Assembly (NCBI GenBank): GCA_032718475.1
Contig: JAUCBJ010006705.1
Location: 1 to 64,000 of the forward strand
DNA: 64,000 nucleotides
Source: Nemertoderma westbladi
Taxonomy: Eukaryota; Animalia; Xenacoelomorpha
Direction of reading: 5' to 3'
The position numbers were made by a program, and so were the translations under genes. Numbering within the stretch: the first letter of the stretch is position 1; each line of letters opens with the position of its first letter. Shown here piece after piece: positions 13,486 through 50,320 of the stretch. The notes under the pieces are model-generated. The model made no database searches and was not told the origin of the DNA. It saw nothing but the letters and a program-made list of their open reading frames with translations.

Positions 13486-13735
13486 TTGATTGTAATTATT
13501 GTAATTGATTTATTGTAATTGATTGTTATTGTAATTGATTGTTATTGTAATTGATTGTTATTGTAATTGATTGTTATTGTAATTGATTGTTATTGTAATT
13601 GATTTATTGTAATTGATTTATTGTAATTGATTGTTATTGTAATTGATTGTTATTGTAATTGATTGTTATTGTAATTGATTGTTATTGTAATTGATTTATT
13701 GTAATTGATTGTATTTATTGTAATTGATTGGAATT
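13486..13735. repeat. AT-rich 14/16-bp tandem repeat
   Basis: (gtaattgattgttatt)n with gtaattgatttatt variants, directly upstream of the exon-2 acceptor. Confidence 0.9.
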
Positions 13736-13758
13736 AATTGTATTTCCGTTAATCGTAG

Positions 13759-13847
13759 AAAATGAAGAAATAGAACCGGTAGTCGATGACATCGAGGAAC
13801 CCGTAGAACTAACATTTTCGGAGGAAGCCTTGTTCTGGCACAATAAG
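13759..13847 (+). CDS. Second coding exon of the putative GAPR-1/GLIPR2-like gene (start of the CAP domain)
   Basis: Acceptor tatttccgttaatcgtag|AA, open frame (E)NEEIEPVVDDIEEPVELTFSEEALFWHNK, donor AAG|gtaagg. FSEEALFWHNK fits the first CAP helix pattern F..e.L..HN.(YR). Confidence 0.75.
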
Positions 13848-25800: not shown

Positions 25801-28800
25801 TAAGATAAGGTAGGAGGGATCCTTGTTCTGGAACAATAAGGTAAGGTAGGAGGAAGCCTTGTTCTGGCACAATAAGGTAAGGTAGGAGGAAGCCTTGTTC
25901 TGGCACAATAAGGTAAGATAAGGTAGGAGGGATCCTTGTTCTGGCACAATAAGGTAAGATAAGGTAGGAAGGATCCTTGTTCTGGCACAATAAGGTTATT
26001 GTAGGAGGCAGCCTTGTTCTGGCACAATAATGTAAGGTAGGAGGAAGCCTTGTTCTGGCACAATAAGGTAAGGTAGGAGGAAGCCTTGTTCTGGCACAAT
26101 AAGGTAAGATAAGGTAGGAGGAAGCCTTGTTCTGGCACAATAAGGTAAGATAAGGTAGGAGGGATCCTTGTTCTGGCACAATAAGGTAAGGTAGGAGGAA
26201 ACCTTGTTCTGGCACAATAAGGTAAGATAAGGTAGGAGGGATCCTTGTTCTGGCACAATAAGGTAAGGTAGGAGGAAACCTTGTTCTGGCACAATAAGGT
26301 AAGGTAGGAGGAAGCCTTGTTCTGGCACAATAAGGTAAGGTAGGAGGAAGCCTTGTTCTGGCACAATAAGGTAAGGTAGGAGGAAGCCTTGTTCTGGCAC
26401 AATAAGGTAAGGTAGGAGGAAGCCTTGTTCTGGCACAATAAGGTAAGGTAGGATGAAGCCTTGTTCTGGCACAATAAGGTAGGGTAGGAGGAAGCCTTTT
26501 TCTGGCACAATAAGGTAAGGTAAGGTAGGAGGAAGCCTTGTTCTGGCACAATAAGGTAGGGTAGGAGGAAGCCTTGTTCTGGCACAATAAGGTAAGGTAG
26601 GAGGAAGCCTTGTTCTGGCATAATAAGGTAATGTTGGAGGAAGCCTTGTTCTGGCACAATAAGGTAAGGTAGGAGTAAGCCTTGTTCTGGCCCAATAAGG
26701 TAAGGTAGGAGGAAGCCTTGTTCTGGCACAATAAGGTAAGGTAAGGTAGGAGGAAGCCTTGTTCTGGCACAATAAGGTAAGGTAGGAGGAAGCCTTGTTC
26801 TGGCACAATAAGGTAAGATAAGGTAGGAGGGATCCTTGTTCTGGAACAATAAGGTAAGGTAGGAGGAAGCCTTGTTCTGGCACAATAAGGTAAGGTAGGA
26901 GGAAGCCTTGTTCTGGCACAATAAGGTAAGATAAGGTAGGAGGGATCCTTGTTCTGGCACAATAAGGTAAGATAAGGTAGGAAGGATCCTTGTTCTGGCA
27001 CAATAAGGTTATTGTAGGAGGCAGCCTTGTTCTGGCACAATAATGTAAGGTAGGAGGAAGCCTTGTTCTGGCACAATAAGGTAAGGTAGGAGGAAGCCTT
27101 GTTCTGGCACAATAAGGTAAGGTAGGATGAAGCCTTGTTCTGGCACAATAAGGTAAGGTAGGAGGAAGCCTTTTTCTGGCACAATAAGGTAAGGTAAGGT
27201 AGGAGGAAGCCTTGTTCTGGCACAATAAGGTAGGGTAGGAGGAAGCCTTGTTCTGGCACAATAAGGTAAGGTAGGAGGAAGCCTTGTTCTGGCATAATAA
27301 GGTAATGTTGGAGGAAGCCTTGTTCTGGCACAATAAGGTAAGGTAGGAGTAAGCCTTGTTCTGGCCCAATAAGGTAAGGTAGGAGGAAGCCTTGTTCTGG
27401 CACAATAAGGTAAGGTAAGGTAGGAGGAAGCCTTGTTCTGGCACAATAAGGTAAGGTAGGAGGAAGCCTTGTTCTGGCACAATAAGGTAAGATAAGGTAG
27501 GAGGGATCCTTGTTCTGGAACAATAAGGTAAGGTAGGAGGAAGCCTTGTTCTGGCACAATAAGGTAAGGTAGGAGGAAGCCTTGTTCTGGCACAATAAGG
27601 TAAGATAAGGTAGGAGGGATCCTTGTTCTGGCACAATAAGGTAAGATAAGGTAGGAAGGATCCTTGTTCTGGCACAATAAGGTTATTGTAGGAGGCAGCC
27701 TTGTTCTGGCACAATAATGTAAGGTAGGAGGAAGCCTTGTTCTGGCACAATAAGGTAAGGTAGGAGGAAACCTTGTTCTGGCACAATAAGGTAAGATAAG
27801 GTAGGAGGAAGCCTTGTTCTGGCACAATAAGGTAAGATAAGGTAGGAGGGATCCTTGTTCTGGCACAATAAGGTAAGGTAGGAGGAAACCTTGTTCTGGC
27901 ACAATAAGGTAAGATAAGGTAGGAGGGATCCTTGTTCTGGCACAATAAGGTAAGGTAGGAGGAAACCTTGTTCTGGCACAATAAGGTAAGGTAGGAGGAA
28001 GCCTTGTTCTGGCACAATAAGGTAAGGTAGGAGGAAGCCTTGTTCTGGCACAATAAGGTAAGGTAGGAGGAAGCCTTGTTCTGGCACAATAAGGTAAGGT
28101 AGGAGGAAGCCTTGTTCTGGCACAATAAGGTAAGGTAGGATGAAGCCTTGTTCTGGCACAATAAGGTAGGGTAGGAGGAAGCCTTGTTCTGGCACAATAA
28201 GGTAAGGTAGGAGGAATCCTTGTTCTGGCACAATAAGGTAAGGTAAGGTAGGAGGAAGCCTTGTTCTGGCACAATAAGGTAAGGTCGGAGGAAGCCTTGT
28301 TCTGGCACAATAAGGTAAGGTAAGGTAGGATGAAGCCTTGTTCTGGCACAATAAGTTAAGGTAGGAGGAAGCCTTGTTCTGGCACAATAAGGTAAGGTAG
28401 GAGGAAGCCTTTTTCTGGCACAATAAGGTAAGGTAAGGTAGGAGGAAGCCTTGTTCTGGCACAATAAGGTAGGGTAGGAGGAAGCCTTGTTCTGGCACAA
28501 TAAGGTAAGGTAGGAGGAAGCCTTGTTCTGGCATAATAAGGTAATGTTGGAGGAAGCCTTGTTCTGGCACAATAAGGTAAGGTAGGAGTAAGCCTTGTTC
28601 TGGCCCAATAAGGTAAGGTAGGAGGAAGCCTTGTTCTGGCACAATAAGGTAAGGTAAGGTAGGAGGAAGCCTTGTTCTGGCACAATAAGGTAAGGTAGGA
28701 GGAAGCCTTGTTCTGGCACAATAAGGTAAGGTGAGGTAGGAGGAAGCCTTGTTCTGGCACAATAAGGTAAGGTAGGAGGAAGCCTTGTTCTGGCACAATA

Positions 28801-31800
28801 AGGTAAGGTAAGGTAGAAGGAAGCCTTGTTCTGGCACAATAAGGTAAGGTAGGAGGAAGCCTTATTCTGGCACAATAAGGTAAAGTAGGAGGAAGCCTTG
28901 TTCTGGCCCAATAAGGTAAGGTAGGAGGAAGCCTTGTTCTGGCACAATAAGGTAAGGTAGGACGAAGCCTTGTTCTGGCACAATAAGGCAAGGTAGGAGG
29001 AGGCCTTGTTCTTGCACAATAAGGTAAGGTAAGGTAGGAGGAAGCCTTGTTCTGGCACAATAAGGTAAGGTAGGAGGAAGCCTTGTTCTGGCACAATAAG
29101 GTAAGGTAGGAGGAAGCCTTGTTCTGGCACAATAACGTAAGGTAGGAGGAAGCCTTGTTCTGGCACAATAAGGTAAGGTAGGAGGAGGCCTTGTTCTTGC
29201 ACAATAAGGTAAGGTAAGGTAGGAGGAAGCCTTGTTCTGGCACAATAAGGTAAGGTAGGAGGAAGCCTTGTTCTGGCACAATAAGGCAAGGTAGGAGGAG
29301 GCCTTGTTCTTGCACAATAAGGTAAGGTAAGGTAGGAGGAAGCCTTGTTCTGGCACAATAAGGTAAGGTAGGAGGAAGCCTTGTTCTGGCACAATAACGT
29401 AAGGTAGGAGGAAGCCTTGTTCTGGCACAATAAGGTAAGGTAGGAGGAAGCCTTGTTCTGGCACAATAAGGTAAGTTAGGAGGAAGCCTTGTTCTGGTAC
29501 AATAAGGTAAGGTAGGAGGAAGCCTTGTTCTGGCACAATAAGGTAAGTTAGGAGGAAGCCTTGTTCTGGTACAATAAGGTAAGGTAGGAGGAAGCCTTGT
29601 TCTAGCACAATAAGGTAAGGTAGGAGGAAGCCTTGTTCTGGCACAATAAGGTAAGGTAGGAGGAAGCCTTGTTCTGGCACAATAAGGTAAGGTAGGAGGA
29701 AGCCTTGTTCTGGCACAATAAGGTAAGGTAGGAGGAAGCCTTGTTCTGGCACAATAAGGTAAGGTAGGAGGAAGCCTTGTTCTGGCACAATAAGGTAAGG
29801 TAGGAGGAAGCCTTGTTCTGGCACAATAAGGTAAGGTAGGAGGAAGCCTTGTTCTGGCACAATAAGGTAAGGTAGGAGGAAGCCTTGTTCTGGCACAATA
29901 AGGTAAGGTAAGGTAGGAGGAAGCCTTGTTCTGGCACAATAAGGTAAGGTAGGAGGAGGCCTTGTTCTGGCACAATAAGGTAAGGTAAGGTAGGAGGAAG
30001 CCTTTGTTCTGGTCCAATAAGGTAAGGTAAGGTAGGAGGAAGCCTTGTTCTGGCACAATAAGGTAAGGTAAGGTAGGAGGAAGCCTTGTTCTGGCACAAT
30101 AAGGTAAGGTAGGAGGAAGCCTTGTTCTGGTACAATAAGGTAAGGTAGGAGGAAGCCTTTTTCTGGCACAATAAGGTAAGGTAAGGTAGGAGGAAGCCTT
30201 GTTCTGGCACAATAAGGTAAGGTGAGGTAGGAGGAAGCCTTGTTCTGGCACAATAAGGTAAGGTAGGAGGAAGCCTTGTTCTGGCACAATAAGGTAAGGT
30301 AAGGTAGAAGGAAGCCTTGTTCTGGCACAATAAGGTAAGGTAGGAGGAAGCCTTATTCTGGCACAATAAGGTAAAGTACGGTAGGAGGAAGCCTTGTTCT
30401 GGCACAATAAGGTAAGGTAGGAGGAAGCCTTGTTCTGGCACAATAAGGTAAGGTAAGGTAGGAGGAAGCCATGTTCTGGCACAATAAAGTAAGGTAAGGT
30501 AGGAGGAAGCCTTGTTCTGGCACAATAAGGTAAGGTAGGAGGAAGCCTTGTTCTGGCACAATAAGGTAAGGTAAGGTAGGAGGAAGCCTTGTTCTGGCAC
30601 AATAAGGTAAGGTAGGAGGTAGCCTTGTTCTGGCACAATAAGGTAAGGTAGGAGGAAGCCTTGTTCTGGCACAATAAGGTAAGGTAGGAAGAAGACTTGT
30701 TCTGGCACAATAAGGTAAGGTAGGAGGAAGCCTTGTTCTGGCACAATAAGGTAAGGTAGGAGGAAGCCTTGTTCTGGCCCAATAAGGTAAGGTAAGGTAG
30801 GAGGAAGCCTTGTTCTGGCACAATAACACAATAAGGTAAGGTAGGAGGAAGCCTTGTTCTGGCACAATAAGGTAAGGTAGGAGGAAGCCTTGTTCTGGCA
30901 CAATAAGGTAAGGTAGGAGGAAGCCTTGTTCTGGCACAATAAGGTAAGGTAGGAGGAAGCCTTGTTCTGGCACAATAAGGTAAGGTAAGGTAGGAGGAAG
31001 CCTTGTTCTGGCACAATAAGGTAAGGTAGGAGGAAGCCTTGTTCTGGCACAATAAGGTAAGGTAGGAGGAAGCCTTGTTCTGGCACAATAAGGTAAGGTA
31101 GGACGAAGCCTTGTTCTGGCACAATAAGGCAAGGTAGGAGGAAGCCTTGTTCTTGCACAATAAGGTAAGGTAAGGTAGGAGGAAGCCTTGTTCTGGCACA
31201 ATAAGGTAAGGTAGGAGGAAGCCTTGTTCTGGCACAATAAGGTAAGGTAAGGTAGGAGGAAGCCTTGTTCTGGCACAATAAGGTAAGGTAGGAGGAGGCC
31301 TTGTTCTGGCACAATAAGGTAAGGTAAGGTAGGAGGAAGCCTTTGTTCTGGTCCAATAAGGTAAGGTAAGGTAGGAGGAAGCCTTGTTCTGGCACAATAA
31401 GGTAAGGTAAGGTAGGAGGAAGCCTTGTTCTGGCACAATAAGGTAAGGTAGGAGGAAGCCTTGTTCTGGTACAATAAGGTAAGGTAGGAGGAAGCCTTTT
31501 TCTGGCACAATAAGGTAAGGTAAGGTAGGAGGAAGACTTGTTCTGGCACAATAAGGTAAGGTAAGGTAGGAGGAAGCCTTGTTCTGGCACAATAAGGTAA
31601 GGTAGAAGGAAGCCTTGTTCTGGCACAATAAGGTAAGGTAGGAGGAAGCCTTGTTCTGGCACAATAAGGTAAGGTAGGAGGAAGCCTTGTTCTGGCACAA
31701 TAAGGTAAGGTAGGAGGAAGCCTTGTTCTGGCACAATAGGGTAAGGTAAGAGGAAGCCTTGTTCTGGCACAATAAGGTAAGGTAGGAGGAAGCCTTGTTC

Positions 31801-32811
31801 TGGCCCAATAAGGTAAGGTAGGAGGAAGCCTTGTTCTGGCACAATAAGGTAAGGTAGGAGGAAGCCTTGTTCTGGCACAATAAGGTAAGGTAGGAGGAAG
31901 CCTTGTTCTGGCACAATAAGGTAAGGTAGGAGGAAGCCTTGTTCTGGCACAATATGGTAAGGTAGGAGGAAGCCTTGTTCTGGCACAATAAGGTAAGGTA
32001 AGGTAAGGTAGGAGGAAGCCTTGTTCTGGCACAATAAGGTAAGATAGGAGGAATCCTTATTCTGGCACAATAAGGTAAAGTAAGGTAGGAGGAAGCCTTG
32101 TTCTGGCACAATAAGGTAAGGTAGGAGGAAGCCTTGTTCTGGCACAATAATGTAAGGTAGGAGGAAGCCTTGTTCTGGCACAATAAGGTAAGGTAAGGTA
32201 GGAGGGAGCCTTGTTCAGGCACAATAACGTAAGGTAGGAGGAAGCCTTGTTCTGGCACAATAAGGTAAGGTAGGAGGAAGCCTTGTTCTGGCACAATAAG
32301 GTAAGGTAGGAGGAAGCCTTGTTCTGGCACAATAAGGTAAGGTAGGAGGAAGCCTTGTTCTGGCACAATAAGGTAAGGTAAGGTAGGAGGAAGCCTTGTT
32401 CTGGCACAATACGGTAAAGTAAGGTAGGAGGAAGCCTTGTTCTGGCACAATAAGGTAAGGTAAGGTAGGAGGGAGCCTTGTTCAGGCACAATAAGGTAAG
32501 GTAGGAGGAAGCCTTGTTCTGGCACAATAAGGTAAGGTAGGAGGAAGCCTTGTTCTGGCACAATAAGGTAAGGTAGGAGGAAGCCTTGTTCTGGCACAAT
32601 AAGGTAAGGTAAGGTAGGAGGAAGCCTTGTTCTGGCACAATAAGGTAAGGTAGGAGGAAGCCTTGTTCTGGCACAATAAGGTAAGGTAAGGTAGGAGGAA
32701 GCCTTGTTCTGGCACAATAAGGTAAGGTAGGAGGAGGCCTTGTTCTGGCACAATAAGGTAAGGTAAGGTAGGAGGAAGCCTTGTTCTGGTCCAATAAGGT
32801 AAGGTAAGGTA
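13820..32811. repeat. 36-bp satellite, left block (~19 kb)
   Basis: Unit ggaggaagccttgttctggcacaataaggtaaggta, with 41- and 46-bp variants from extra TAAGG and regional variant families. Confidence 0.99.
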
Positions 32812-33971
32812 TGTTTGCGCTTTTGAAGACCTTTGACAGTTTAACCTGCCAAAATTAGAATGTCTTTTAGATGATAGATAGTCTTTAGCCTATGATGAGT
32901 ATTTAATACACTACATTAGCCGAAGCCAGTCTATGCGCAATCATTCACCCGTTGGATATACCCGGGAGACTGAGTTCGGAGCTTAATGATTGATGGTGTA
33001 AGCCTACTGTATTATTCGACTGATCGTAATATATAATCTCTGACAAATATTATTCACTTTCGGGAAATATCAACAGTTCCTTTAGGACGTGGTGCTCTAA
33101 ATATGTAAACAGAGTTATGACTTAAACTAGACACAACGAAAAGGCTATAGATTCACGTATATGGCGCATTCTTTAGGAGATGCTTTGTTATCAGTTACAC
33201 TCATACACAATGCTGCACAATACTGCACACTAATCTGCCGACCTTCACTAAATTTGGTCACGTATAAAGAGAGCAACAGACAATTTATGTTGGGCATATG
33301 AAATAGCATTAGATTCACTTCAAACCACTTAACATAGGTCGCAATCGTTTATCTGTAACCGGTCTCTCTAACCTTTAGTATATCAAGGCTTAACAGATAT
33401 CTGACTATTGATCAGTATTCCGATATAATATTTCATCAACAAATATAATGAATAACCGACAGCAAAAGCAGTAATATTAGTAATTTATGGATAGTGAGTG
33501 AGTAAGTAAGTAGCTCGTTAACAGATATACGTTCTATAATTAAGCCTACTAATGTAAGAGTAAAGACTGAAAACACGGAGGTGCCAAAAGCCGATGTTCT
33601 TAGGCTCTGGGCAAAAACATAACACTGAACTACTGAGTTCTGTATACACCTCCAACACAGAGACAAAAAACGCTCTGATTGGTCAACCGAACAACTAGAG
33701 AACAAAGAAACAAAGAAATGTCGACGTGGCAATATCAGCTGTTAGCCGTCGTCATGGTAGCGACACTGTTTTCAAGAGTATCTAGCTTATCGCGTCACGA
33801 GATTGCGGATTATGTCCTCTAAAGTACGAATACAGTGCAAATACAAAAGAAATGACTTTTATGTCCTCTAAAACACCAGTACAGCAAGGACACGGCCTTT
33901 TTATGCCTGGTAAACCAACTACAGAGTACTTTAAGGGAAAATAACCGGTTAATGACGCAAAAGCTTTTACA
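32812..33971 (-). repeat. 3' LTR (1160 bp)
   Basis: Minus strand TGTAAAAGC...GCGCAAACA. Differs from the 5' LTR by about 7 substitutions (counted by eye) and one 12/13-nt block. Confidence 0.97.
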
Positions 33972-33979
33972 CCGCTCCC
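33972..33979 (-). other. Polypurine tract
   Basis: GGGAGCGG immediately before the TG of the 3' LTR on the minus strand. Confidence 0.7.
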
Positions 33980-34049
33980 AGAAAATGGGATTTAAGTCTA
34001 TAAAATACAACAAATCACAGTTTCTAAAATATAAAAATACTCTAAACAG

Positions 34050-37000
34050 TTAGTCTTTCTTACGCGGATGGCGTTTACGCAGTTTTTGGAGGCTAGTAAG
34101 AGTCCTTTTCTCTTTGGGGCGAGCCACTTTACTAGGAGGGCTGTAACTCCTGGGTGAAGGGTGCAATACAATTGCATCAGAAGGTTTCGGATTGCGATCG
34201 GTATATCCGCCGGTCGAGGTACCTGGTTGATCGATATCAACTTCCGTGGAGCGAGGTCTAACAGCCTTTAGGGCGCGCCTCAGGACAGCAGCTCCTACGG
34301 GTCCTTGACGGGTTGTCTGGGCAATGGCGGTAGGCGGACCGTGAGTGGTGAGAAACTTCCTTGGTTTAATAGTTCTTTCCAGCTCGCGTTCTCGGGCTCG
34401 ATATTCGTAGGGCCGTCGAGATACTTCCTGTAACTCCGGGTGCGAGTTGATAAATAAATCGCCATACTCAGGGTCTTGATGGATATAATTGATCAAATGG
34501 TATGAAGTAATATCGTTAGGATTGATGTTCCTAAGGTATCTTCTAACAAATTTAGTGGAAATACACTCACCAACACGCTTCATTAGCTCGTAACTCGGTA
34601 CGCGTGTTTTTTGTTCCACAGACGCTAATAAATAAGGATGGAACGCGTAAACTCCCTCGTAAGAGCGTCCAGGGTAGTATCGATGACGGGACTCACAATG
34701 TAAATCCGCGTTCGCTTCCCAAGCTCGAATGTAGCGCAGGGTAATCATTTCATCTACGCTCTCTAAATCGTGATTAAAGGGGCAATTATAACTGGCATGT
34801 CCTTTAAGTTGACAGTGGTGGCATTGAGTCATAAATTGGGGGCAGACTGCAAAAATATGAGAGTTATTAATTCTGCAATACGCACAATATATCTCCATCA
34901 TTGGTTGTTCGTGGAAGTAGGAACAGGGTACGTCTGAGTCCATAGGAGTGAAATGGTCTCTCGATGCGCATAATCGACAACGTTTTCGAGAAACATAGTT
35001 AGCGTGTCGATAATCGTATGCGGTGAGACATTGTGGACCTTGATACCACTCTAAGACGTAGTCGTTATCGCTGCTCCGGGGCGCTTTAGGTTGAATCGCT
35101 TCAGCTTCTAAGCATATTGGTTCGTCTTCCAATTGCATAGCTGAGGTAGATGCGGCTGTCTCCGCAAGCGGACCCACTGTCTGAACTTCGACGACAGAAT
35201 AACCCGTGGGTATTCGGGGTCTTTGTATAACAGATGAGTGCAAGTTCTGTATACAAACGTCCTGAAAAAGGGCAAATCCCGCGCTGTTTAGCTTCTCCGC
35301 CGCTGAGTCTCTCAGGCTGAGTTTGGTCAGAGCGCGGTCCTTGAACTGACTATCCACGTTACGGAACGGAGTCAGAAAGCGCCTGAAACATTCAAAGCGG
35401 ATGAATTTATTGTGTTCATCTAGCTTGGCGAGTTTGGTTCCAAGTATTAAGGGATGGGCGCGTATGGTACGACTGCACACATCGGCTAGCCAACCGGCAA
35501 GTGCTGCGTTTTCAAAGATCGTGTATATAGCTAAGGAGGGACGAAGTGGAACACTCATAAAGCTATACACGGCGCCAGGTGCGGTCAATGGTCCATCAAA
35601 GTATAAACGAGAATAATGATCTCCGTATACTTGTTGGTAATTTATAGGATTTCCAACCTTGAAATTCCATCCGTATTCTTGAAAGGCAAGATGTCCGATG
35701 GAGGTTCGTTGTACTTTGGTAATTCCGCTGGGTGTATTGGCATACATAGTGCGGATGAAACCTCGGCCTTCTGCCCAAGGAGCAATCAGCTGAGTATCAA
35801 CGAAGGGGTATGGAATGTTCTCCATATTCCGAAAGTCGTTCTGTAGGTCTCCATAAACAGCTGAGCCGATTTTAAGGATTCCTTCGTTAAACAGCATCTC
35901 GAGCACGGGTTGGGGTAACATCGATCCATCGATACCCATGGCCGGCTTGCGCTCGGTGTCGGTGACGTAACGCTGCGCGAGTTCAAATTGTCCATGTCGG
36001 AGTTTCTTTTGTGTCTCAGTAAGAGTTTCAAAAGAATAATCAATAACGTCGGAACACGCTCGAGTAAATACGTGGGTAGAACCAGCGAGTCCTCGTATGT
36101 GTATCATCCGCGTAGTTCCAAGTTCTCCAACCGGAACGCTACCTTCGTTATCGTAAGTGACAACTCCATACATCTCGATAACGTTAAGAGTTTCGTTCCA
36201 CTCTTTAGTGGCGTTTTCGAGTGTCATTCCCACAGGATGCCACAAGGTAGCACATTCGCTAGCATTAGGCAGGTCTTTATATTTTAAATATTGTGTGGTA
36301 TGTGTTTCCTCATCTCCATATCATTGTATTCTTTCCTCCTCGAATAACACATCAAGATTCCAGTGCACTAAACGAGTTTTGATGAATCCATCAAGATTAT
36401 ATGGAGGTATTGTTTCTTTCTCTATTCTGGAAACATTATATGGTTTTCGAAACGAGTTTACTTTAACTAACTGATCCAGATGTTTCTGCAGTTGTTCGAG
36501 TTCGACAAGATCGAGAGGATTTATTAACGGTAGAAACTTCAGACTATGTGTAGGATCTTCCGGTTTTACCATGTAATATTGTTTGAGATTGACGTAATAA
36601 GGGTGATCTTTGATACCATAAAACGAGTCCGGTAAAGGTCTAGCGCGTATGTTTACATCGTGTACCATGCGACGGACAAGATCTGCTCTATTGTCCGGAG
36701 GTTCAACGAGCATACCATCGACACGAGCGGGTTTGATGGGCGGACGCTGCAACAGAGGAGCGTCGGCGATAAGATCGCGAGATCTTAGGTTGATATCAAC
36801 CGGTTGGGGTTGTGCCGTCGCAAAAAGTTTGTCTCCGAAATGGGGAACCATCGAGGGATGAAGAATGGTTTTAGAGTAGAGATCCGTCATAAGGATTTGC
36901 GCTTCGGGTTGAGCTAAAGCCGCTTCTTCTCTCTCATCCAGTTCTATATGTCTCTCCTCGAGCTGATTCTCCTCCGCTTGTTGTTGTAGACACTCATCTA

Positions 37001-38303
37001 GAAACTCTTGTAAAGAGTAGGTTCGTCCACGTTCGATGTCCTCCTCGAGATTTTGTATTTCTCTATCGAACTGGGGTAAAGCTAATTCCTTCACCGCTTG
37101 GACTTGTTGCTGCAATTTACGCTTCTCCAAACAATCGTACGTTCCCTTTCCGATTTTCTGCCGAATAGTGTCTAATGCGTTTCGTACGACGCTCTCTTCG
37201 ACTTCCGTAGCGGGTTGGATAGAGGTGAAGCCGGGACGGTTGTATGGGTTAAACGGTGATATTAGATGACCACGTCCCAATCCAGCTAGGTAGGGTTGAC
37301 GAATGTCTTGCGAGCCTACTACCGGAGTGCCACCGATCAACTGTTCGGGTAACACTAGATCTTTGAACAGTGAGTACAGTTCGGGAGGATCCGTGATACT
37401 ATTAGGGTCAAGAGTTTGAGGTCTGACTGAGGAATGCGGAGGTCTGACCGAGTATTCCGGAACTCTGATCATCGGTTTGTTCAAGGATCGCTTGAGTCGA
37501 GCGACCGCAGGGGACACGTCGAACAGGTTTCGCTCGAAACTCCCGTAAGTATATCGTGTAAAACTGTGTTTAGCGCAACGTCTCCGCGGATGTTTATGTC
37601 TTTCCGTTTGCTGATTGGGTCTAGGGCATTCGTCACAGTAATACCAAAGACGCATGTCCTGCAGAGGAAACGCGGGTGATCGTTCTCCAGTTTTACAATA
37701 TTCCTCCATCTGTTCGAAGCTATCTGGGACAACAGGTAGCGGTCGATCGGCGGTAAGATACATCATAGTAAAATAGAGTCGTTTGAGTTCTATCATAGGA
37801 TCATGATGTATACCTTGAGGATATCGAGTTTCGAGATTTTGTTGACTGGCAATATTGAGGTATGTTTCTCTCAAGAATTCCAGATAATCGTTGAAGTCGT
37901 TGCGTTTATCCGGCTCTTCAATATCTTCTCTTTCGAGTCGGTTTCGAATAGAGTTCTCGTGTTCTATTCTTGGCTTATCGTTCCGATTCCGTTGGGTATG
38001 ATATTTAAATAAAACCATTTCCCTTTCGGTATCCACATCGTCCGTATCGTGTAAATCGATAGGGTGGCCGGTAGTTAAGAAGTCCATATACGTACCATTA
38101 CGATGCGTATAGCGAGCGGTGAACTTTCTATAGTCCAATTCACGCGTAAGTTGCTCCGGGGACATCGACGATTCGATATAACGACCATCATCCTCCGTAG
38201 TAGTTGGACCAGCGTCGCCGCGTATCAAGCTATCGACAAACGCTTGTAAAGGTAGAGTATATCGCTCCCTGATGCCAAGATCATCTTCTATCAACTCAGT
38301 CAT
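34050..38303 (-). CDS. Accessory gene (~1417 codons, one in-frame TGA at 36323-36321): unknown N-terminal half + DEDDy (WRN/EXD/Mut-7-like) 3'-5' exonuclease + zinc knuckles
   Basis: ORFs 36321-38303 and 34050-36245 are in the same frame, with 25 open codons between them. ExoI VVTYDNEG, then LPQPVLEMLFNEGILKIGSAVYGD (ExoII), FVDTQL, and ExoIII-like VPLRPSLAIYTIFE. Cys/His motifs: CRLCASRDH, CAYCRINNSHIFAVC and CHHCQLKGHASYNC. Confidence 0.8.
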
Positions 38304-39948
38304 ATCTGCTATGAGTTTATCAATATTATAATGAGTCTATATATATTAGGCTAGCGGGCGTCGCTGCCTACCCCTCTTTTGCCCCCGGACAGTGTAAGAT
38401 CCTCAGCCCCGATGTACCGTCGTCGCTGTGCTTTCGTCAACGATGTAGCTACACAACGACAACGATAACCGGCACAAGTCACTTAACTGTCCGTCCCAAA
38501 GGCTTAGATGTACTGCAGGTTCTTCTTGGAGAGTTAGGGTTACTTTCACAATTGCGACTCGCTACTGTAAACACACCTTAGTAGTAACATTCACCTACAA
38601 ACGCACAAATTCAACACAACTGCAACAAACTGCACACATTCGTGCCATTTGTCCGTTAGTCAGTGCCTTCCAGAATGTCACTGTATTTATTATGTATCCT
38701 TGGATACTAGCAGTGCGCTATTTATTCCCTATGCTATTCAATGGGGCATGCTTTCTATTGTTCTTTTAACTCACTTCTAATTCTAGCGTGGTAGTTGCCA
38801 TGGTGACATTATGGAAAGCTAGCGGTAGAATTAGGGTAATTCTCATGCATACAGATCTGGGATGCTATTTAATAGTAATTCTTTAATGGTCAATATCCCC
38901 TTTATACATGATTCTATGAATTTTATCGGCTATTGACTATGCATTGGAGATTCTCGCACACAAATACACTTAATAAAGTGAATCTCCGCTCCCATGATCT
39001 ATTAATTAATGGAATTTTGGGAATGTTATAAATTGTACAAAATGACAATTTATTAAATTCATTGAAATATATGAATTTAAATTTATTCCCGTAAATTTTA
39101 TTATTTGATGTTAAAATTGACACAATTTGATTCCAGAGCAGGTCTGGGGACATAGGATCCTTAATTCTAGGAATTTTGTCCTTTTAAGAATATCGGTAAG
39201 TGCTACGATATCTTAATCGACTAGAATTTTAAAGGACCTGATATTTGACAGATTTTTGTAAATATTAATAATTAATATTTAGGATGGGCACCAGTTTATT
39301 CCAGAACTTCTCTGGGGACGTTAACCACTGATTCTAGAAATTTGTCTTTCAAGTATATCGGTGGGTGCCACGATATCTTAATCGACTAGAATTACAGATG
39401 GTCAAAGGGTTTAACAGATTTATTTGCGTTATACGCTACTGTTAAAGAGACATCACGCTACTATATGTATTACTTAATATACGGTATGAGAGCAATATCG
39501 CACGAAGCAATGTCAGTGTGAAGAGGCAAGTCGTTTCCAAGGTCTACCCAGAGCTTGGTTTAGCCGAGACACGAGGATCTGAACTTTGCATTCCTAATAC
39601 TCTGCCTACCAATAATGCTTGAATATAGTAGTGGCTTTATTGTACTTTAATAAGTACGAAGATTTCATCTTACTGTAGTCACGTATTTATAATATGATAC
39701 GGACAGTAAGGAAAGAGAAAAATAATTATTTCTCGCCATCACACTAAATATATATTATAAGTAATTACGTACGTAATAAACACTAATATATTGCACTAAT
39801 CCACTAAATGATCACTAAAATAACATGTTACTAAATAAAATTAAATAAAACGATTAAAATAAAATTACATAATAATACATACATAAATATAAAAATAAAA
39901 CAAATACAAATATAAAGTAATATGGTCACACACCCACTCCAGCCGTTG

Positions 39949-42900
39949 TTAAGTTGGGGAGTCCCTAGATGTTTGTTGGATTAGGGAGGTGGTCGTGGGA
40001 AGAGTATCTTGTCTCCCATAGTTTCCGGAGAGTTCTCTGTCTCTTTCCAGTAAACATAAACGTCCCACCGGGCGATTGAGCTGCTGCGTCTCGAAGACAA
40101 TTCCCGGTTTCTTGAAGTTACGTCGCATGACGACGAGTTCTACCGATCGCACCAAACCGTCATCCGAGATATGCGTCTCGATTATACGACCTGTCTGCCA
40201 CCTCTTACGTGGAAGATCCACATCCACAATAAGAACCATGTCTCCAGCGCTAACGTTTTCTTGCTGCGCAAACCACTTAGTTCGAAGTTGTAGCGTGGGC
40301 AGATAATGTTTTTCGAAATGGTCAGCGAAACGACGGGATAACAACTGCATGAGTTGCCAAGTTTGTCGGCAGTATTCGTCTCCGTCTGTGATTTCCGATT
40401 GTGGGAGCATGGCTACAGGTTTCTTCAGTAGGAAGTGCGCGGGTGTTAGCGCTTCCAGGGAATCGGGACTCGATGAGACTGGCATAAGCGGTCTCTCGTT
40501 GAGATAGGCGGCGATTTCTTCCATTAACGTCCGCAAAAGTTCGTCGGTGAGATAAGCGCGGCAAGGCACTATAAAATGAAATGCTGTCTTCATGCTTCTT
40601 ATTAATCTCTCCCAACTTCCTCCCCACCAAGGGGCGTCGGCGGCGTTGAAGGTCCAACTAGACGCTGTTACTCGTAGTTGGTCGTCCACCTGTCTTTGGT
40701 TCCAATCTTTGACGTAAGCTTTGATTTCATTGTTGGCACCAATGAAGTTTGTTCCCTTATCAGATCTCATCGTGTTACTAGTGCCAAAGCGAGCGATCTG
40801 TCGTCGTAAGCTTAATAGAAAGCTGTTGGTAGATAAATCGTTCACCATATCGAGATGGATGGCTCTACAAGTCATACAAACAAAGATTACACACCATCTC
40901 TTGACTATAGTTCTAGCACGATATACTTCAATAGGGCCAAATAAATACACGCCGGTATTAGTAAAGGGTGGTTCATAAAAGCTTACTCGTTCCCTAGGTA
41001 ATTCTGCCTCTCGCTGTGTTAAAGGCCTACTGAATGCTTTCCTACAGGGTATACAGTTCCTAAGAACTTGGTTCAGAGCTCTACGAGGTTTATAAAAATA
41101 ATAGCGAGTTCGAATTTCGCTAAGAACTCGTTCTCTACCAGCATGATAAAGTTTGCTGTGAACATCTACAATCATCTTGACTTGTATTTCAAGATTTCTA
41201 ATGAGTATGGGGAACTTAGTATCAAAGGATAATGGGGCGTTCGTTAATCTTCCTCCAACACGTATCAACCCATCTATCATTGTGCTAGAGAAACGATCCC
41301 TTAAGCGCATCTGTGGATTTCTCAACAACAGGAAATACTTATCGGAATCTTCATAGCATTGTAAAAGTCTCAGCATCTGTTTGTTGGTTTCATCATGCTC
41401 CTGATAACTGATCTTCTCCTTTAGAAACTTGTCGGGTAACTTATATTTGGGATTGTCTTTAATAACATGCATCTGCACTGATGTGATTGGAGCGGTATCA
41501 CCCTTTGTTTTCATCCCAGAGTAGTGACGGTGAAAACATCTCTTTAAATATGTAACGGCCTTACAGAGCCGATTCCAAGAACTATAGTGATGTATCGCTC
41601 TCTGCAGAAGAGGTGAGAGTCCTTGCGAGATGTCAGGTATGCCAGATTTCCAATCCTTATCACGGATTTCCACAACGAGTTTATTTGTGGCTGTGGGTTT
41701 CTGATCCAAAGCTTCGTCTCCGGAAGTATGTAGCACAGACAGATCTACTGTGGGTTTGAATAACTTCGATTTACTCGCCTGAGTTTTAGGTTTGACTTTC
41801 TCCGCTCCCTTGGCCTGTCTAATTTCTGCTGTAGTAAGATGAGGAGGCCATTCTTCTTCTTCTTTGTAGAGGAAGTCGGGTCCACCTAACCAGTCTGGAG
41901 TATCTACCAGTTCTTGTGGAGTTGCTCCCCTGGAAGCGATGTCCGCTGGATTAATCGTTCCTGGGCAATGTCTCCATTGATCCATCGTCGTGCGACTGAG
42001 TATAATAGCTACTCTGTTGGTAACGAAGACGCTGAACTGACAGACTTCATTGGTTATATACTCCAACACGAGTAAAGCGTCGGTCCAATAGACAGTTTTC
42101 TCCAGGGGATAGTCGATCTGTTCTGTTACATTCTGGCCGATGGCTGTAGCGTATAGAGCCGCTTTTAACTCCGCTCGAGGAACTTTCAACTTGTTGTTTA
42201 TTAATGCCTTAGAGGTAACCAAGGCGACTTTAATTCCGTCCGGAGTTTCCACCCTTAGGTAGGCTACTATACCTATTCCCATATCGCTGGCGTCTCCAAA
42301 CACATGGAGTTGATATGAATACGTAGGGAGAACATGACCAAAATAGGAACGGGAAATTATGAAGTTTTCGATGGCTGGTAGAGAATCTTCCCATTTCATC
42401 CATTTCTTTAATAATTCTCCCTTAAGTGGATCGTCCCATGAGTGGTTTTCAAGCCACATTTGTTGTACTAAACTCCGAGCAATCAATATAACTGGGCTAA
42501 TAAATCCCAATGGATCGAAATAAGTGCTCAGGATACTTAAACAAATCCGTTTAGTCCGAACTGGATTATCTCGCTGTTTTAGTTGGAAAAACAGGATATC
42601 TCTTTCTGTGTCCCATTTCAAACCAAGGGTCTTAGTTTCTGGGAGATCATCCTTTATTAGATCTAGGTCTTTTGTTCCTCGATCTTCTACCGGGATCGAC
42701 TCCAGAAACTCACGGGAGTTGCTGGTGAATTTAGTTAATCGAAATCCACCTTTCTTTAAGCATTCTACCGTTCCTTTAGCGACCTCAATGGCTTCTTCGA
42801 CTGATGGAAGGGACTTCAGATTATCGTCCATGTAGATGTCTCGTTTGATATTGTCGATCACTTCTTTAGAGAAGGCGTCTCGGTTGTCATCTGCAGTGGT

Positions 42901-43830
42901 GCGTACCACGGAACAGGCGTTTGAAGGGCTCGAGATTATCCCAAAAGCTTGGATGGTCATCCAGTACTCCACCGGTTTCTTATTGAGGTCTCCTTCAGGC
43001 CACCACAAAAATCGTAGACTATCTCGATCCCTATCCAGCGCTTTGACTTGTAAGAACATGCCTTCTATATCTGAGGCGAAAGCAATGGAGTATTGTCTTA
43101 ACCTTAATAATATTCCCAACAAGGATTGGAGTAAGTTGGGTCCGGGTAACAATTCAGAATTAAGGGATTGGCCCATATAGAGGGCGGAACCGTCAAACAC
43201 CACTCGTACTTCATGGGGTTTACCGGGTTTGGGAACGTAATGGTGAGTTAAGTAATACGTTCTCTCAGTTATAGGAGTTTCTTCAGGTACTAGCTCCGCA
43301 TATCCCTTGCTAATAAACTTCTTCAACTGTGTTTTATACATTTCTTTAGCTGAAGAATTTGCCGTAAGGCGTCGATGTAGTTGAGCAATTCTTTTCTCTG
43401 CCAAAGGTCTGTTGTTAATGAACTTTGGTTCTCGCTTTCGGAAAGGAAGTCCGATCTCATACCTACCTTGATCTTTAAGAAAACGAGTAGTTGTCGCTTG
43501 GATCTGCTTGGCTCTTTCTTCCTCCACCGATAGGGCCTTATCGTAGGAGTTGGGCTCTACGACCTCTTGAGTAAAGAATCTCACGGCGTGTTCATCCCGA
43601 GTCTTGGCATTATAACGTTCAATGACGTTATTAAGCTCGTCGTTATAGTCGTCTCGCTCAGATGGGTGAAGGAGTTGACATAAGTTCACTTGATTTTGCC
43701 AAGTCTCGCTTTCCTTAAGGAGATCGATGGCATTCTCCTCATCAAAGAGTTGATGTATATCGTCATTGTCTGAGGAGTATGGAGTTCCCTCAGTTGGATC
43801 GTCGAACTCACTGTTCTCAACTTCCCATTC
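39949..43830 (-). CDS. pol: BEL/Pao pol: RT, RNase H, integrase (in frame with gag-PR across a TGA)
   Basis: VRVVFDGS, SLNSELLPGP, SDIEGMFLQV, YMDD, LGLKWD, HVFGDAS, VPRAEL, YWTD, NPADIASRG, HSKLYHAG..CIPC, SDKGTNF, WGGSWER, LTPAHFL and DGLVRSV. Confidence 0.95.
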   Translation of the reverse strand, partial: EWEVENSEFDDPTEGTPYSSDNDDIHQLFDEENAIDLLKESETWQNQVNLCQLLHPSERDDYNDELNNVIERYNAKTRDEHAVRFFTQEVVEPNSYDKALSVEEERAKQIQATTTRFLKDQGRYEIGLPFRKREPKFINNRPLAEKRIAQLHRRLTANSSAKEMYKTQLKKFISKGYAELVPEETPITERTYYLTHHYVPKPGKPHEVRVVFDGSALYMGQSLNSELLPGPNLLQSLLGILLRLRQYSIAFASDIEGMFLQVKALDRDRDSLRFLWWPEGDLNKKPVEYWMTIQAFGIISSPSNACSVVRTTADDNRDAFSKEVIDNIKRDIYMDDNLKSLPSVEEAIEVAKGTVECLKKGGFRLTKFTSNSREFLESIPVEDRGTKDLDLIKDDLPETKTLGLKWDTERDILFFQLKQRDNPVRTKRICLSILSTYFDPLGFISPVILIARSLVQQMWLENHSWDDPLKGELLKKWMKWEDSLPAIENFIISRSYFGHVLPTYSYQLHVFGDASDMGIGIVAYLRVETPDGIKVALVTSKALINNKLKVPRAELKAALYATAIGQNVTEQIDYPLEKTVYWTDALLVLEYITNEVCQFSVFVTNRVAIILSRTTMDQWRHCPGTINPADIASRGATPQELVDTPDWLGGPDFLYKEEEEWPPHLTTAEIRQAKGAEKVKPKTQASKSKLFKPTVDLSVLHTSGDEALDQKPTATNKLVVEIRDKDWKSGIPDISQGLSPLLQRAIHHYSSWNRLCKAVTYLKRCFHRHYSGMKTKGDTAPITSVQMHVIKDNPKYKLPDKFLKEKISYQEHDETNKQMLRLLQCYEDSDKYFLLLRNPQMRLRDRFSSTMIDGLIRVGGRLTNAPLSFDTKFPILIRNLEIQVKMIVDVHSKLYHAGRERVLSEIRTRYYFYKPRRALNQVLRNCIPCRKAFSRPLTQREAELPRERVSFYEPPFTNTGVYLFGPIEVYRARTIVKRWCVIFVCMTCRAIHLDMVNDLSTNSFLLSLRRQIARFGTSNTMRSDKGTNFIGANNEIKAYVKDWNQRQVDDQLRVTASSWTFNAADAPWWGGSWERLIRSMKTAFHFIVPCRAYLTDELLRTLMEEIAAYLNERPLMPVSSSPDSLEALTPAHFLLKKPVAMLPQSEITDGDEYCRQTWQLMQLLSRRFADHFEKHYLPTLQLRTKWFAQQENVSAGDMVLIVDVDLPRKRWQTGRIIETHISDDGLVRSVELVVMRRNFKKPGIVFETQQLNRPVGRLCLLERDRELSGNYGRQDTLPTTTSLIQQTSRDSPT

Positions 43831-46800
43831 TCACGCTTGATATACCTGATCTTTAGGTAATCTTTCCATTAGAGTTCTACGGGAAGGGCCAGTAAAGTAC
43901 CAACCTACTCTAGTTCTTCCCGCATAAACTTGTAGAGGTTGCGGTTGAGCAGGTCGTTTCTCCAATGTCTCGAGCGCTTCATGCGCATTTTGACCGATGA
44001 GTATTTGCACTCCAGGATAATCTGTCTGGAATCGAGGTATCTTAAGATGTTGGATGCTCTCATCCTCGTCCCAATTATAAAGGTCTGCTTGAGTAGTAGC
44101 GAAGTTCTTTATAGCCACCATTTTCACTGACCTTATGCTATGTTCTCCTAGTTCGTCCTGGGGGGTGGACAACGCACCTACATAATAATCCGCGGTTACT
44201 GTGGATTTCCAAACTTGCATAATTCCTGACATGTTTAGCTTAGTTCGGAACTTGGGTTGTCCATCGAATATGTCTTCGGCTAGATCTTTGTCGATGAATG
44301 TTCCTGTACTACCGGAGTCAAGGAGGGCGTTCACTACATAACTCCTTTTTGGTCCGTGGACCCTTACCTGTACCACAGGAAATTCTATAATCCCTACATT
44401 GGAAGTTGGCGCTTTCCAAGATGGTTGTCGATCAGAAGTAGTTAGAGCGAGGTCAATGTCTGTATCTTTTTCATAAATGAGTGCTCGATACACTGTGGTA
44501 TTTATCATGTAACAGGATTCGTTTTCGTCGGAGAACTCGTCTGTATAGAATCCTTCCATCTCAGATTGATCAGTGTCGTTCACATCACTGAATTGGACAT
44601 GTAGTTCGGAATCACTTACCTGACTCGGACTATTTCGCTCGAATTCAGTGTGCAACAAGATATGATGTTTCGCACCGCACTTGGCACATCTTGTGTCAGA
44701 GTAACAGGTTCGCCGTTGGTGTCCTTGTCTGAGGCAATTATAGCACAACCGCTTGTCCCACATGACTTCACGTCTCTCAGTTAATGATTTCTTTAGAAAT
44801 TCATCACACATATTTAAGCGATGGGTCCCATCACATAGCGCACATTTCGGTTTGATGTTACTTACCTTACTCTGTGTAACATTATGTACACTTGCTTTTT
44901 CTTCGGGCTTTCTCGCCTGAATTCTCTTGGGAGACGTAGGAGGAGTTTTTCTTACCTGTTCTCTCCTGTCATTTGTTCGAGACTTGAATTTACTTACCTG
45001 ATCTTTAGGCATTTTATTTACGTAATAAGATCTATCAGTGTCTTTTCTGCTATCTTCTCCTTGAGAAGTCTGGCTTTCGCCATCATCTGTATAACACACT
45101 GGTATTACCTTTCTCCTAGCGACGGGTTTTTCACTTACCTTGTTTTCCGGTGTCTTCTCTCTGGACAGTTTCAGGAGCTGTAATTTCACTTCTCCATCTA
45201 GGAATGACATGAGATCAGCCATGGTAGGGTCTCGTCGTTGTTGTTCCATCATATATAGCACTTTCTTATCCCAGCGTGTACCTACTCCACCCTTCGGTAA
45301 AGTAGAAGCCACTGCTCTAATAACCATAGCATTCTGATACTCATGAGACTTACCTAGCCAATCCAATTGTCTGCAGATCTCCTGAATCTCATCGGAAAAC
45401 TCTATAATTCCGCTGCTAATAAACTTTCGGGGCGCTACCAACTTTGCATACAAATACCCAGCTATGTTATTCCTATTACCATACCTGATGTTTAGTGTAT
45501 CCCAAACTTGTCTTAATCCGTCTGGATGTCCAATAAACTTTAACGCCATTAACTTGGGAGATCCTTCCAAGCACTCGATGAGGAATCTAAGTTTCTCTCC
45601 ATTAGATAGCACAGAGTTCTGTATGTTATCTTTGTAATATTCATTAAAAGGTAACCATTTCATCTCATCTCCATTGAACTTGACGATCTCTCCCACCTTT
45701 ACCGCTTGCCGGGCTTCGGTTCTAGCCATTTGACGCGTAAAACTTTCTTGGGCCATCGTGTTATTTAATATCGAGTTATCGGTATATAAATTTCTCGGAT
45801 TATGATCCGGTCTATAGGGAATATCATTATCAACAGGTCTATAATTACCCTTAATAGGGTTCACTATAGGAGTTTCTACTTCGCTAGCAGTATAGATGCG
45901 TGTAGGTTCCACACCTTGCGCATGAGATACTTCAGACCTAACAGGTTGACACATGGTTACAGGGGGTGGTGGTATACCCTTTTGTGCATTTACTAATTTA
46001 TCGCGTTCTAGCGCGATACTTTGCTGCACTTCTTGCAACTCTAATCTACTTTCCCTTACTGTGCCCTTGAATTGCTGAACGGTCTCCTGCATCTGTCCGA
46101 GCAGGAGATCCATCCCCCGTCGTCTCTCATCCACCCATTCAACCGCCGAAGCGGGATTCGCCAACGTTCTAGTGGGCGGACGAGATACAACGGGCGACAA
46201 ATCATGAATATTTCGCTCGGAGTCCAGGGCATGAACTGTCTCATGGGCTGTTCTGCTGGGCACAGGTAGCTTAGTGCTGTGCAAAGGGAATTGAGAGGTA
46301 GGTTCAGGGAGTACCGGTGTCTCTACGACCGAAAGGGTGGCTTCGGGAACAGACCTAACTATTTCGGGCTCATCTACTATAGTAGGGAGTCTCTCTATTG
46401 TAATTATTTGGTCTGTGGGTTCTGTACTACCTAAGTTGGTGTTATTTAGTTGCCTTCTAACAGCTGGAGGCAAATCAGGCAATTTTTGACGGTGGGATGT
46501 TCTTTTACGTCTGCTTAGGCGAGATCGATTTCCTCCGCCTTCAGTGTCGGTGGTATCGCCTTCCTCAGATGATGTATAACCCTGTCTTTTGGGAGTAGAT
46601 CGATTCATCATCTGCATATTACTAGCTGTTAACTGTTTATTAAAGTTGTCTTGTTTCTCTTGAAGATTTTCCAACTCTAGTTGGGTTGTCTCTTCAGATG
46701 CCTTTCGTTCTGCTTCTGCCACTGCTATTTTTCTTTCCGCTTCGGCCGCCTTTCTTTCGGCTTCGACTGCTGCAGCTGCCACCTTTCTTTCCGCTTCGGC

Positions 46801-47214
46801 CGCCTTTCTTTCGGCTTCGACTGCTGCAGCTGCCACCTTTCTTTCCGCTTCGGCCGCCTTTTTTTTGGCTTCTACTGCCTTTCTTTCGGCTTCTACTGCT
46901 GCAGCTGCCGCTTTTGCCTCTGCCGCTGCCGCTTTTGCCTCTGCCGCTGCCTCGGCCGCTTTCTTTCTGTCTTCTATACGTTTTTTCCTTACTTGTTCTT
47001 CTTGAACCTTAGCGATGCGGATGCTTTCATTGAATTTAGCTTGGTTCGCAGCTAACCTATCCACATCGATTGCATCCAACACACGCTGGGCTCCTTCACT
47101 ATTAGGGCTAAGTCCGTCCAACCTTCTCCTCAACTCTTCATCACCTACGAAACGCTGATAGTCTGACAGATAGATGTCAATGGCATCCCTCTTATGCGGT
47201 TTCTCTGCCGTGCT
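43831..47214 (-). CDS. gag: BEL/Pao gag core + aspartic protease
   Basis: KFNGDEMKWLPF, three BEL-type knuckles (CALCDGTHRLNMC, CYNCLRQGHQRRTC, CAKCGAKHHILLH) and protease ALLDSGS. The frame is open up to ~47214, overlapping the upstream ORF. Confidence 0.93.
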   Translation of the reverse strand, partial: STAEKPHKRDAIDIYLSDYQRFVGDEELRRRLDGLSPNSEGAQRVLDAIDVDRLAANQAKFNESIRIAKVQEEQVRKKRIEDRKKAAEAAAEAKAAAAEAKAAAAAVEAERKAVEAKKKAAEAERKVAAAAVEAERKAAEAERKVAAAAVEAERKAAEAERKIAVAEAERKASEETTQLELENLQEKQDNFNKQLTASNMQMMNRSTPKRQGYTSSEEGDTTDTEGGGNRSRLSRRKRTSHRQKLPDLPPAVRRQLNNTNLGSTEPTDQIITIERLPTIVDEPEIVRSVPEATLSVVETPVLPEPTSQFPLHSTKLPVPSRTAHETVHALDSERNIHDLSPVVSRPPTRTLANPASAVEWVDERRRGMDLLLGQMQETVQQFKGTVRESRLELQEVQQSIALERDKLVNAQKGIPPPPVTMCQPVRSEVSHAQGVEPTRIYTASEVETPIVNPIKGNYRPVDNDIPYRPDHNPRNLYTDNSILNNTMAQESFTRQMARTEARQAVKVGEIVKFNGDEMKWLPFNEYYKDNIQNSVLSNGEKLRFLIECLEGSPKLMALKFIGHPDGLRQVWDTLNIRYGNRNNIAGYLYAKLVAPRKFISSGIIEFSDEIQEICRQLDWLGKSHEYQNAMVIRAVASTLPKGGVGTRWDKKVLYMMEQQRRDPTMADLMSFLDGEVKLQLLKLSREKTPENKVSEKPVARRKVIPVCYTDDGESQTSQGEDSRKDTDRSYYVNKMPKDQVSKFKSRTNDRREQVRKTPPTSPKRIQARKPEEKASVHNVTQSKVSNIKPKCALCDGTHRLNMCDEFLKKSLTERREVMWDKRLCYNCLRQGHQRRTCYSDTRCAKCGAKHHILLHTEFERNSPSQVSDSELHVQFSDVNDTDQSEMEGFYTDEFSDENESCYMINTTVYRALIYEKDTDIDLALTTSDRQPSWKAPTSNVGIIEFPVVQVRVHGPKRSYVVNALLDSGSTGTFIDKDLAEDIFDGQPKFRTKLNMSGIMQVWKSTVTADYYVGALSTPQDELGEHSIRSVKMVAIKNFATTQADLYNWDEDESIQHLKIPRFQTDYPGVQILIGQNAHEALETLEKRPAQPQPLQVYAGRTRVGWYFTGPSRRTLMERLPKDQVYQA
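46720..46960 (-). repeat. 54-bp coding repeat giving an Ala/Glu/Lys-rich helical segment in Gag
   Basis: About 3 copies of AAEAERKVAAAAVEAERK. Confidence 0.85.
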
Positions 47215-50040: not shown

Positions 50041-50320
50041 TACAATCTGAGCGGGCTTACACGCCTTCTGCTCAATACTGGCCTACAAATAAATAAAACT
50101 GACAGAAATAAGTAAGCTCCAAAAGAAACAAGGGGTGTACAGTCCCTAATCTCTTAAACAGCCTACCGGTATACAATACCACAATCGAATAATACTGCTG
50201 TACCTGTACCGTAAGTAGGTACCGGTCCGGATGATCAGGCAGTCAGGCCTACTGGTTACCGGTCGACCGGTACTTTCTACTAGATTGCTTACACCGCAAT
50301 CCAGAAGCAATATCTGTTAT

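Follow-up and report, generated by a model that had tools for sequence, protein, structure and literature searches.

Juno and Vesta of bdelloid rotifers are gypsy-like long terminal repeat (LTR) elements. Both carry a third gene of the DEDDy exonuclease type, described with a DEED tetrad and without proof of activity (PMC5408684); DEDDy accessory open reading frames (ORFs) are also described for Athena/Terminon elements (PMC5408684; PMC6431247; PMC6338049) and a DEDDy domain for some Dada DNA transposons (PMC3706591). BEL elements are not mentioned in the available portion of the bdelloid ORF3 paper (PMC5408684). The BEL/Pao elements (Belpaoviridae) are given as 4.2 to 10 kb long, with an optional env-like third gene and a primer site for a transfer RNA (tRNA), tRNA-Arg or tRNA-Gly (PMC8742986), and 15 kb is the upper bound for full-length elements in a 2011 BEL/Pao survey by de la Chaux and Wagner (PMC3118150). 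Here we describe a far larger element with a BEL/Pao-type Pol in Nemertoderma westbladi (assembly GCA_032718475.1, contig JAUCBJ010006705.1, positions 1 to 64,000; this 64,000-nucleotide stretch is referred to as the window), whose third gene is under purifying selection and codes for a protein with three Cys/His knuckles and, very probably, a DnaQ-type exonuclease domain. We propose, with a probability of about 0.4, that this is a selected accessory gene whose product trims RNA 3' ends, most likely those of host small silencing RNAs or their precursors.

The third frame lies on the minus strand at 38303-34050 and has no introns. From an ATG at 38303 it runs for 1,418 codons with two stops, the terminal one and an internal TGA at 36323-36321, and the remaining five frames across the same interval have 55 to 100 stops each. 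Like pol it lies on this strand; 1,645 nt separate its start from the pol stop, and a purine tract (33979-33972) follows 70 nt after its end. These coordinates agree with an earlier note on this DNA, which had reported one frame with a single TGA downstream of integrase and about 70 nt before the purine tract; its gene of about 1,400 aa stands as a frame of 1,417 codons, whereas a single protein of that size is its inference, the window copy encoding 660 and 756 aa. A relic of the gene lies elsewhere in the window, and two distant relatives, P0003 and P0004, come from database searches. The parts of the frame, and the relic, are as follows.

36321-38303, minus strand: first half of the third frame, 660 aa, with no Pfam family, acidic stretches, a Cys/His cluster at about residues 223-246 and conservation in the relic over residues 519-650; ends at the internal TGA.
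35451-36248, minus strand: putative DnaQ/PF01612-like 3'-5' exonuclease domain, with a D-E-D-E tetrad and the ExoIII Tyr.
34782-34979, minus strand: three tandem Cys/His knuckles, at 34979-34923, 34886-34842 and 34823-34782.
34431-34781, minus strand: conserved post-knuckle domain, which aligns in the relic and both distant relatives.
34050-34430, minus strand: low-complexity basic C-terminal tail (net charge +11 over the last 36 aa) and stop.
8876-11152, plus strand: relic third gene of a distant family, 39 to 71% identical in amino acids, in seven pieces with frameshifts and stops.

The motifs named in the earlier note are in place: YDNEG at 36155-36141 (ExoI), KIGSAVYGD at 35873-35847 (ExoII), FVDTQ at 35804-35790 and YTIFE from 35525 (ExoIII), and in the relic YDNEG, the ExoII Asp, FVDTQ and YLIFE are all present. 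The exonuclease domain also has an insertion of about 30 aa after its third strand. The three Cys/His clusters include one canonical knuckle, the third (CX2CX4HX4C); the other two read CX2CX4HX9C and CX2CX5HX4C. A simple scan of hydropathy in 19-residue windows peaks at means of only 1.19 (second half) and 0.82 (first half), so that no signal peptide or transmembrane anchor is indicated and the gene is not an env, as had been claimed; Pfam likewise finds no env family.

Selection on the third frame is seen at two depths. Between the window copy and the relic, which align over 725 codons spread to either side of the TGA, the nonsynonymous proportion of differences (pN) is 0.34 and the synonymous one (pS) is 0.82, which is saturated. 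Closer copies were taken from contigs of four public sequencing runs belonging to four studies (43,300, 12,689, 519 and 251 records), three from one organism and one from another, and the first run may be the source of the window itself; family contigs cover all 30 bins of 33990-40200. Among the best 40 of 1,778 substitutions, 32 fall in the frame and 20 of these are synonymous, compared with 28% expected (p 6e-5), and all of the best 12 of 108 indels lie in the spacer upstream and none in the third frame. Weighing on the other side are the restriction of these counts to the best 40 and best 12, and deletions within the third frame in some of the listed copies. The frame is under purifying selection, and the pN and pS values together with the synonymous excess among copies mark the gene as a kept part of a large family and not as a one-off capture; the earlier note had made its reading depend on the gene being present and conserved across family copies, which these results support.

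WRN, Mut-7/Nibbler and EXD1 are cellular PF01612 proteins, and it is to this family that profile searches connect the domain. A family profile built from the window, relic and distant-relative sequences only found matches (E<=0.1) in 20 of 301 bacterial genomes. Of these 20 matches 17 fall inside PF01612 domains (RNase D, Pol I or stand-alone exonucleases), and the remaining three hit a Clp ATPase, an adenosylhomocysteinase and a frame of 50 aa. In the Escherichia coli genome its single match is within RNase D (E 0.69). Profile-profile comparison with an alignment of the 17 plus E. coli RNase D reaches 96.9% (E 2e-10) and brings ExoI and ExoII into register, a score that is not independent of the bacterial search because the alignment members were chosen by the family profile; the window sequence alone reaches 88%. 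In the ESM Atlas, PF01612 clusters make up 24 of 30 matches, the best at 0.93, alongside two unnamed clusters at 0.94 and 0.93.

Several results weigh against the assignment. Pfam reports no exonuclease family in either half, the domain falling below every threshold, a single-sequence search of the PDB with the domain returned no match, and the profile-profile alignment stops short of ExoIII. A single-sequence AlphaFold model has a pLDDT (predicted local distance difference test) of 30.5, and one built with nine alignment rows averages only 41.6, a poor model whose strand and helix order nonetheless fits DnaQ; the best Foldseek rows for this model are DnaQ-fold proteins (Egalitarian, EXD2), none with an E below 0.05. 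A VIA-align comparison with 48,161 chains yielded a top Z of 5.7 for the same model and did not list DnaQ proteins, which, given the model's poor quality, counts neither for nor against the fold. A word search with the second half found nothing among 7,996 candidates. Matches to ETS domains (E about 0.02 over 36 to 40 residues) are taken as chance; EXD2 scored alike, at E 0.023 to 0.027. We regard the homology to DnaQ/PF01612 3'-5' exonucleases, as read from these profiles, as very likely.

The assignment of ExoIII rests on position and conservation, since the profile-profile match does not reach it. Where canonical members have Y-x-x-x-D, the window protein, the relic and both distant relatives (P0003, P0004) have Y-x-x-x-E, and for that reason we file the enzyme as a D-E-D-E variant and not as a canonical DEDDy exonuclease. 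The earlier description as a DEDDy exonuclease thus stands for membership of the DnaQ/PF01612 group, with the variant ExoIII that the note itself had pointed out; its remark that the Glu is conserved extends from the relic to the two distant relatives.

With selection and homology in hand, the idea that the frame does nothing for the element, being passively captured host DNA or a motif that matches by chance, is largely refuted. The missing Pfam match and the existence of deleted copies speak for it, and it is made highly improbable by synonymous sites that are saturated while half of the residues are kept, by the synonymous excess among copies, by the intron-free frame and by the concentration of profile matches in PF01612.

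Relatives beyond the window are few and divergent. HMMER over 1.84 billion representatives found one match, P0003 (E 1.3e-6), with exonuclease, linker and knuckles in the same order as in the window protein; P0004 was found via P0003, and a domain profile then added four more P0004-type proteins. P0003 and P0004 are 21 to 30% identical to the window protein. All three show, in this order, ExoI, ExoII, DTQ/DTH and Y-x-x-x-E-N and then, past a long and variable linker, three knuckles and the post-knuckle domain, and the ExoI D-x-E, the ExoII D and Y-x-x-x-E-N are kept in all three lineages at 20 to 24% identity across the exonuclease domain. The knuckle profile matches Lin28, Air2 and the human immunodeficiency virus (HIV) nucleocapsid (E 0.001 to 0.03); the best ESM Atlas match with the knuckle region, at 0.86, is a lead only. 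The ExoII Asp is lost in one of three full-length P0004-type copies examined. A point against our reading is that the carriers of P0003 and P0004 may not be BEL elements. Their loci were not found in viral contigs or JGI metagenomes, and tblastn with the P0003 domain gave no plasmid matches and five weak phage rows (E 3 to 9). We note that the P0004 family in ENA (P0004 to P0018) comprises two six-member clusters, with fragments on equal-length contigs, as would be expected of a multi-copy, decaying mobile gene.

The conserved tetrad bears on whether the protein is an enzyme at all. It could be an RNA-binding scaffold with little or no catalysis, like Egalitarian or EXD1, that routes or shields element RNA in the germ line. 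The replacement of the ExoIII Asp by Glu is in keeping with this, as are the top three Foldseek rows, all Egalitarian (E 0.05 to 0.08, from the poor model), a ranking that is not significant. We consider a scaffold unlikely, given four carboxylates and the Tyr kept across lineages at such low identity; dead nuclease domains seldom retain all catalytic residues. Egalitarian itself can do without its putative catalytic residues when it binds RNA (PMC13186709).

The internal TGA leaves two gene structures to weigh, either of which is compatible with any of the functional readings. We lean towards one long protein across the junction, with the TGA more likely a lesion of the window copy than a gene boundary. 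The relic stays in a single frame across the junction, three listed contigs span it without gaps, and conserved residues start upstream of the first Met of the second half. The less probable alternative is two genes, or one with programmed read-through, giving a 660-aa protein and a separate exonuclease-knuckle protein of about 730 to 750 aa. It has in its favor that the 660-aa first half is missing from P0003 and P0004, the relatives being 648 and 769 aa long and beginning 60 to 96 residues before ExoI with no first-half match; that a stop occurs in the relic at four codons' distance from the aligned junction site; and that the gag-pol junction is likewise an in-frame TGA. It is opposed by the absence of a Met between the TGA and the first conserved residues (the relic does not retain the Met that comes later), by five other relic stops in aligned codons and by further signs of decay in the window copy. 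The first half has no relative beyond the relic in Pfam, in a PDB sequence search or in comparison with P0003 and P0004, the large protein sets being outside this search; its sole PDB sequence match, malate dehydrogenase (E at least 0.23), was rejected.

The carrier is a minus-strand LTR element of 18,668 bp (51479-32812), embedded in a 36-bp satellite, with these features besides the third frame.

50321-51479, minus strand: 5' LTR, 1,159 bp, TG...CA, 98.5% identical to the 3' LTR.
50310-50320, minus strand: primer-binding position, with no TGG start; 10 nt complementary to an LTR motif at 51036-51027.
47145-48137, minus strand: 330-aa upstream frame that shares 70 nt with the gag frame and has nothing above threshold in Pfam; likely an N-terminal part of Gag, or else an accessory ORF.
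43831-47214, minus strand: gag-protease frame, with DUF1759, two CCHC knuckles and an aspartic protease motif; ends at an in-frame TGA.
39949-43830, minus strand: pol frame, with reverse transcriptase (RT), Pao-type RNase H (PF05380), integrase zinc finger and core, and DUF5641.
38304-39948, minus strand: non-coding spacer, 1,645 nt, 35% GC, with eight AATAAA.
33972-33979, minus strand: purine-rich tract, 8 nt, abutting the 3' LTR.
32812-33971, minus strand: 3' LTR, 1,160 bp, TG...CA.

The two LTRs differ at only 17 columns, nine in one patch and eight scattered, so the insertion is recent. The same five bases adjoin both ends, which is weak evidence of a target duplication because the 36-bp satellite unit contains them. 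Gag and pol share one reading frame, the in-frame TGA lying between protease and RT. With this TGA, a non-acidic residue at the first catalytic position of integrase and the TGA of the third frame, the window copy looks damaged. The 2.2-kb leader contains an internal duplication of about 250 bp at 50000-49480 (minus strand), and an Rfam search of the element gave zero matches.

Pfam places PF05380 (E 1.6e-36) and DUF5641 (E 1.3e-19) on pol, and the order protease, RT, RNase H (PF05380) and integrase is Pao-type, in accord with the BEL/Pao element that the earlier note had recognized; PF05380 denotes the RNase H found in BEL/Pao Pol (PMC3985635). The LTR lengths fall within the 0.2 to 1.2 kb of BEL/Pao elements, with an 8-nt purine tract before the 3' LTR. 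The total length lies outside the 4.2 to 10 kb of the description by the virus taxonomy committee ICTV, and the stretch following the 5' LTR, which has no TGG at its start, lacks a site complementary to tRNA-Arg or tRNA-Gly. As this primer site is missing, we claim a BEL/Pao-type Pol and not formal ICTV membership.

At the primer-binding position, a complement to an LTR-internal motif as long as the 10 nt seen here arose in 72 of 5,000 simulated LTRs. The motif sits in a block conserved with the relic LTR, and the complement is paired in a predicted fold whose starting point was chosen by the analyst. Self-priming is described for the Tf1/Sushi, Tcn1 and TAR lineages (PMC6317226), and the complement possibly reflects a Tf1-like mechanism; we found no report of self-priming in BEL/Pao in the open-access literature. 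Separately, the nine-column patch distinguishes the LTRs at 33400-33391 and 50908-50897, where the 5' LTR agrees with the relic and the 3' LTR carries the primer-complementary motif a second time, some 30 nt downstream of a TATA-like run. The patch possibly arose by template switch or recombination.

Unusual priming also enters the question of what the exonuclease would act on. An active enzyme might work on the element's own nucleic acid in the particle, at the RNA 3' end, the primer or the ends of the complementary DNA (cDNA) before integration. The nucleocapsid-like knuckles are consistent with this, as is the combination of no tRNA-type primer site with the 10-nt complement, by which priming may be unusual; moreover, 3'-end processing of element RNA was proposed by Rodriguez in 2017 (PMC5408684), and the DEDDy domain of Dada transposons is thought to process cleaved ends (PMC3706591). 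We regard this as possible and less probable than a host-facing role, as gag and pol suffice for most BEL/Pao elements (PMC8742986), the third gene is not fused to Pol, and similar cargo occurs in LTR and Penelope-like elements despite their different priming.

Trimming of host small silencing RNAs or their precursors is favored here by a narrow margin: comparable cargo is found on retroelements that replicate by different chemistry (LTR and Penelope-like), which points to a host-facing role. The third protein would be made from its own subgenomic or spliced message, as suggested by the 1.65 kb of non-coding DNA between pol and the third gene; rotifer ORF3s are described as separate spliced units (PMC5408684). 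Its four carboxylates, the last a Glu where an Asp is usual, would bind a pair of metal ions like those of other DnaQ enzymes, the knuckles would grip single-stranded RNA as in nucleocapsid, Air2 and Lin28, and the exonuclease is predicted to trim the 3' end of the RNA so held. Against this stand two considerations: the evidence at hand, which establishes the position, homology, conservation and selection of the third gene, does not discriminate between host small RNA and element RNA as substrate, and catalysis and expression are, from sequence, predictions only.

A broader view, which we hold to be speculative and improbable as a whole, is that Pfam-invisible D-E-D-E triple-knuckle exonucleases are widespread in retroelements and suppress silencing by PIWI-interacting RNAs (piRNAs) and small interfering RNAs (siRNAs) through 3'-end trimming, carried here by a giant, self-priming, tRNA-independent BEL/Pao element. 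Further such genes have likely been missed because Pfam does not see the protein architecture. BEL/Pao surveys bounded at 15 kb would also tend to drop elements this large. The open 756-aa half provides a direct route to test whether animal LTR elements attack small-RNA silencing or only finish their own RNA.

On either side of the element, at 13700-32800 and 51480-64000, lies the 36-bp satellite, which is built of 5-bp subunits and strongly skewed between strands. An LTR fragment at 7485-8350 (plus strand), 71% identical to the element LTR, is followed by a fragment at 8349-8840, without a Pfam match, that we take to be Penelope-like from its motif, and then by the relic gene. Decayed Penelope-like RT and GIY-YIG frames (GIY-YIG E 0.005) lie at 2182-4304 (plus strand), followed by a tandem repeat at 4301-5650. 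Frames at 108-935 (minus strand) and 7013-7917 (plus strand) have no Pfam match above threshold; by eye we presume them to be a HECT-like tail and a transposase-like fragment.

Among described systems, Juno and Vesta ORF3 come closest, sharing a DnaQ-type exonuclease gene after pol, the lack of a transmembrane segment and an altered tetrad. They differ in a carrier Pol with dUTPase and GPY/F where that of the window is Pao-type, and in a DEED tetrad in place of D-E-D-E; compared by description only, the window protein adds three knuckles and a further domain and reaches up to 1,417 codons. The Athena/Terminon elements are likewise giant retroelements with exonuclease cargo, and unlike the window element they are Penelope-like and telomeric, without LTRs or integrase. 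BEL/Pao elements share with it the 1.16-kb LTRs, the order of protease, RT, RNase H and integrase, PF05380, DUF1759, DUF5641 and the position of the third gene, whereas the window element is 18.7 kb long, its third gene is not env-like and it has no tRNA-Arg or tRNA-Gly primer site. With the PF01612 proteins EXD2, Egalitarian and RNase D the ExoI and ExoII regions align, and the window domain departs from them in its ExoIII Glu, the insertion after strand 3, the triple knuckle and the lack of HRDC (Pfam). No report of an exonuclease gene in BEL/Pao was found in the main texts of the open-access literature, a scope that leaves Repbase, GyDB and subscription papers, which could hold one; the BEL/Pao third genes described in the literature covered are envelope-like. 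Exonuclease cargo is thus already known as a kind, and it now extends from rotifer elements to a third retroelement class, within a family that is abundant and has been active recently. What appears to be new is the carrier, the size, the D-E-D-E tetrad and the architecture of the domains.

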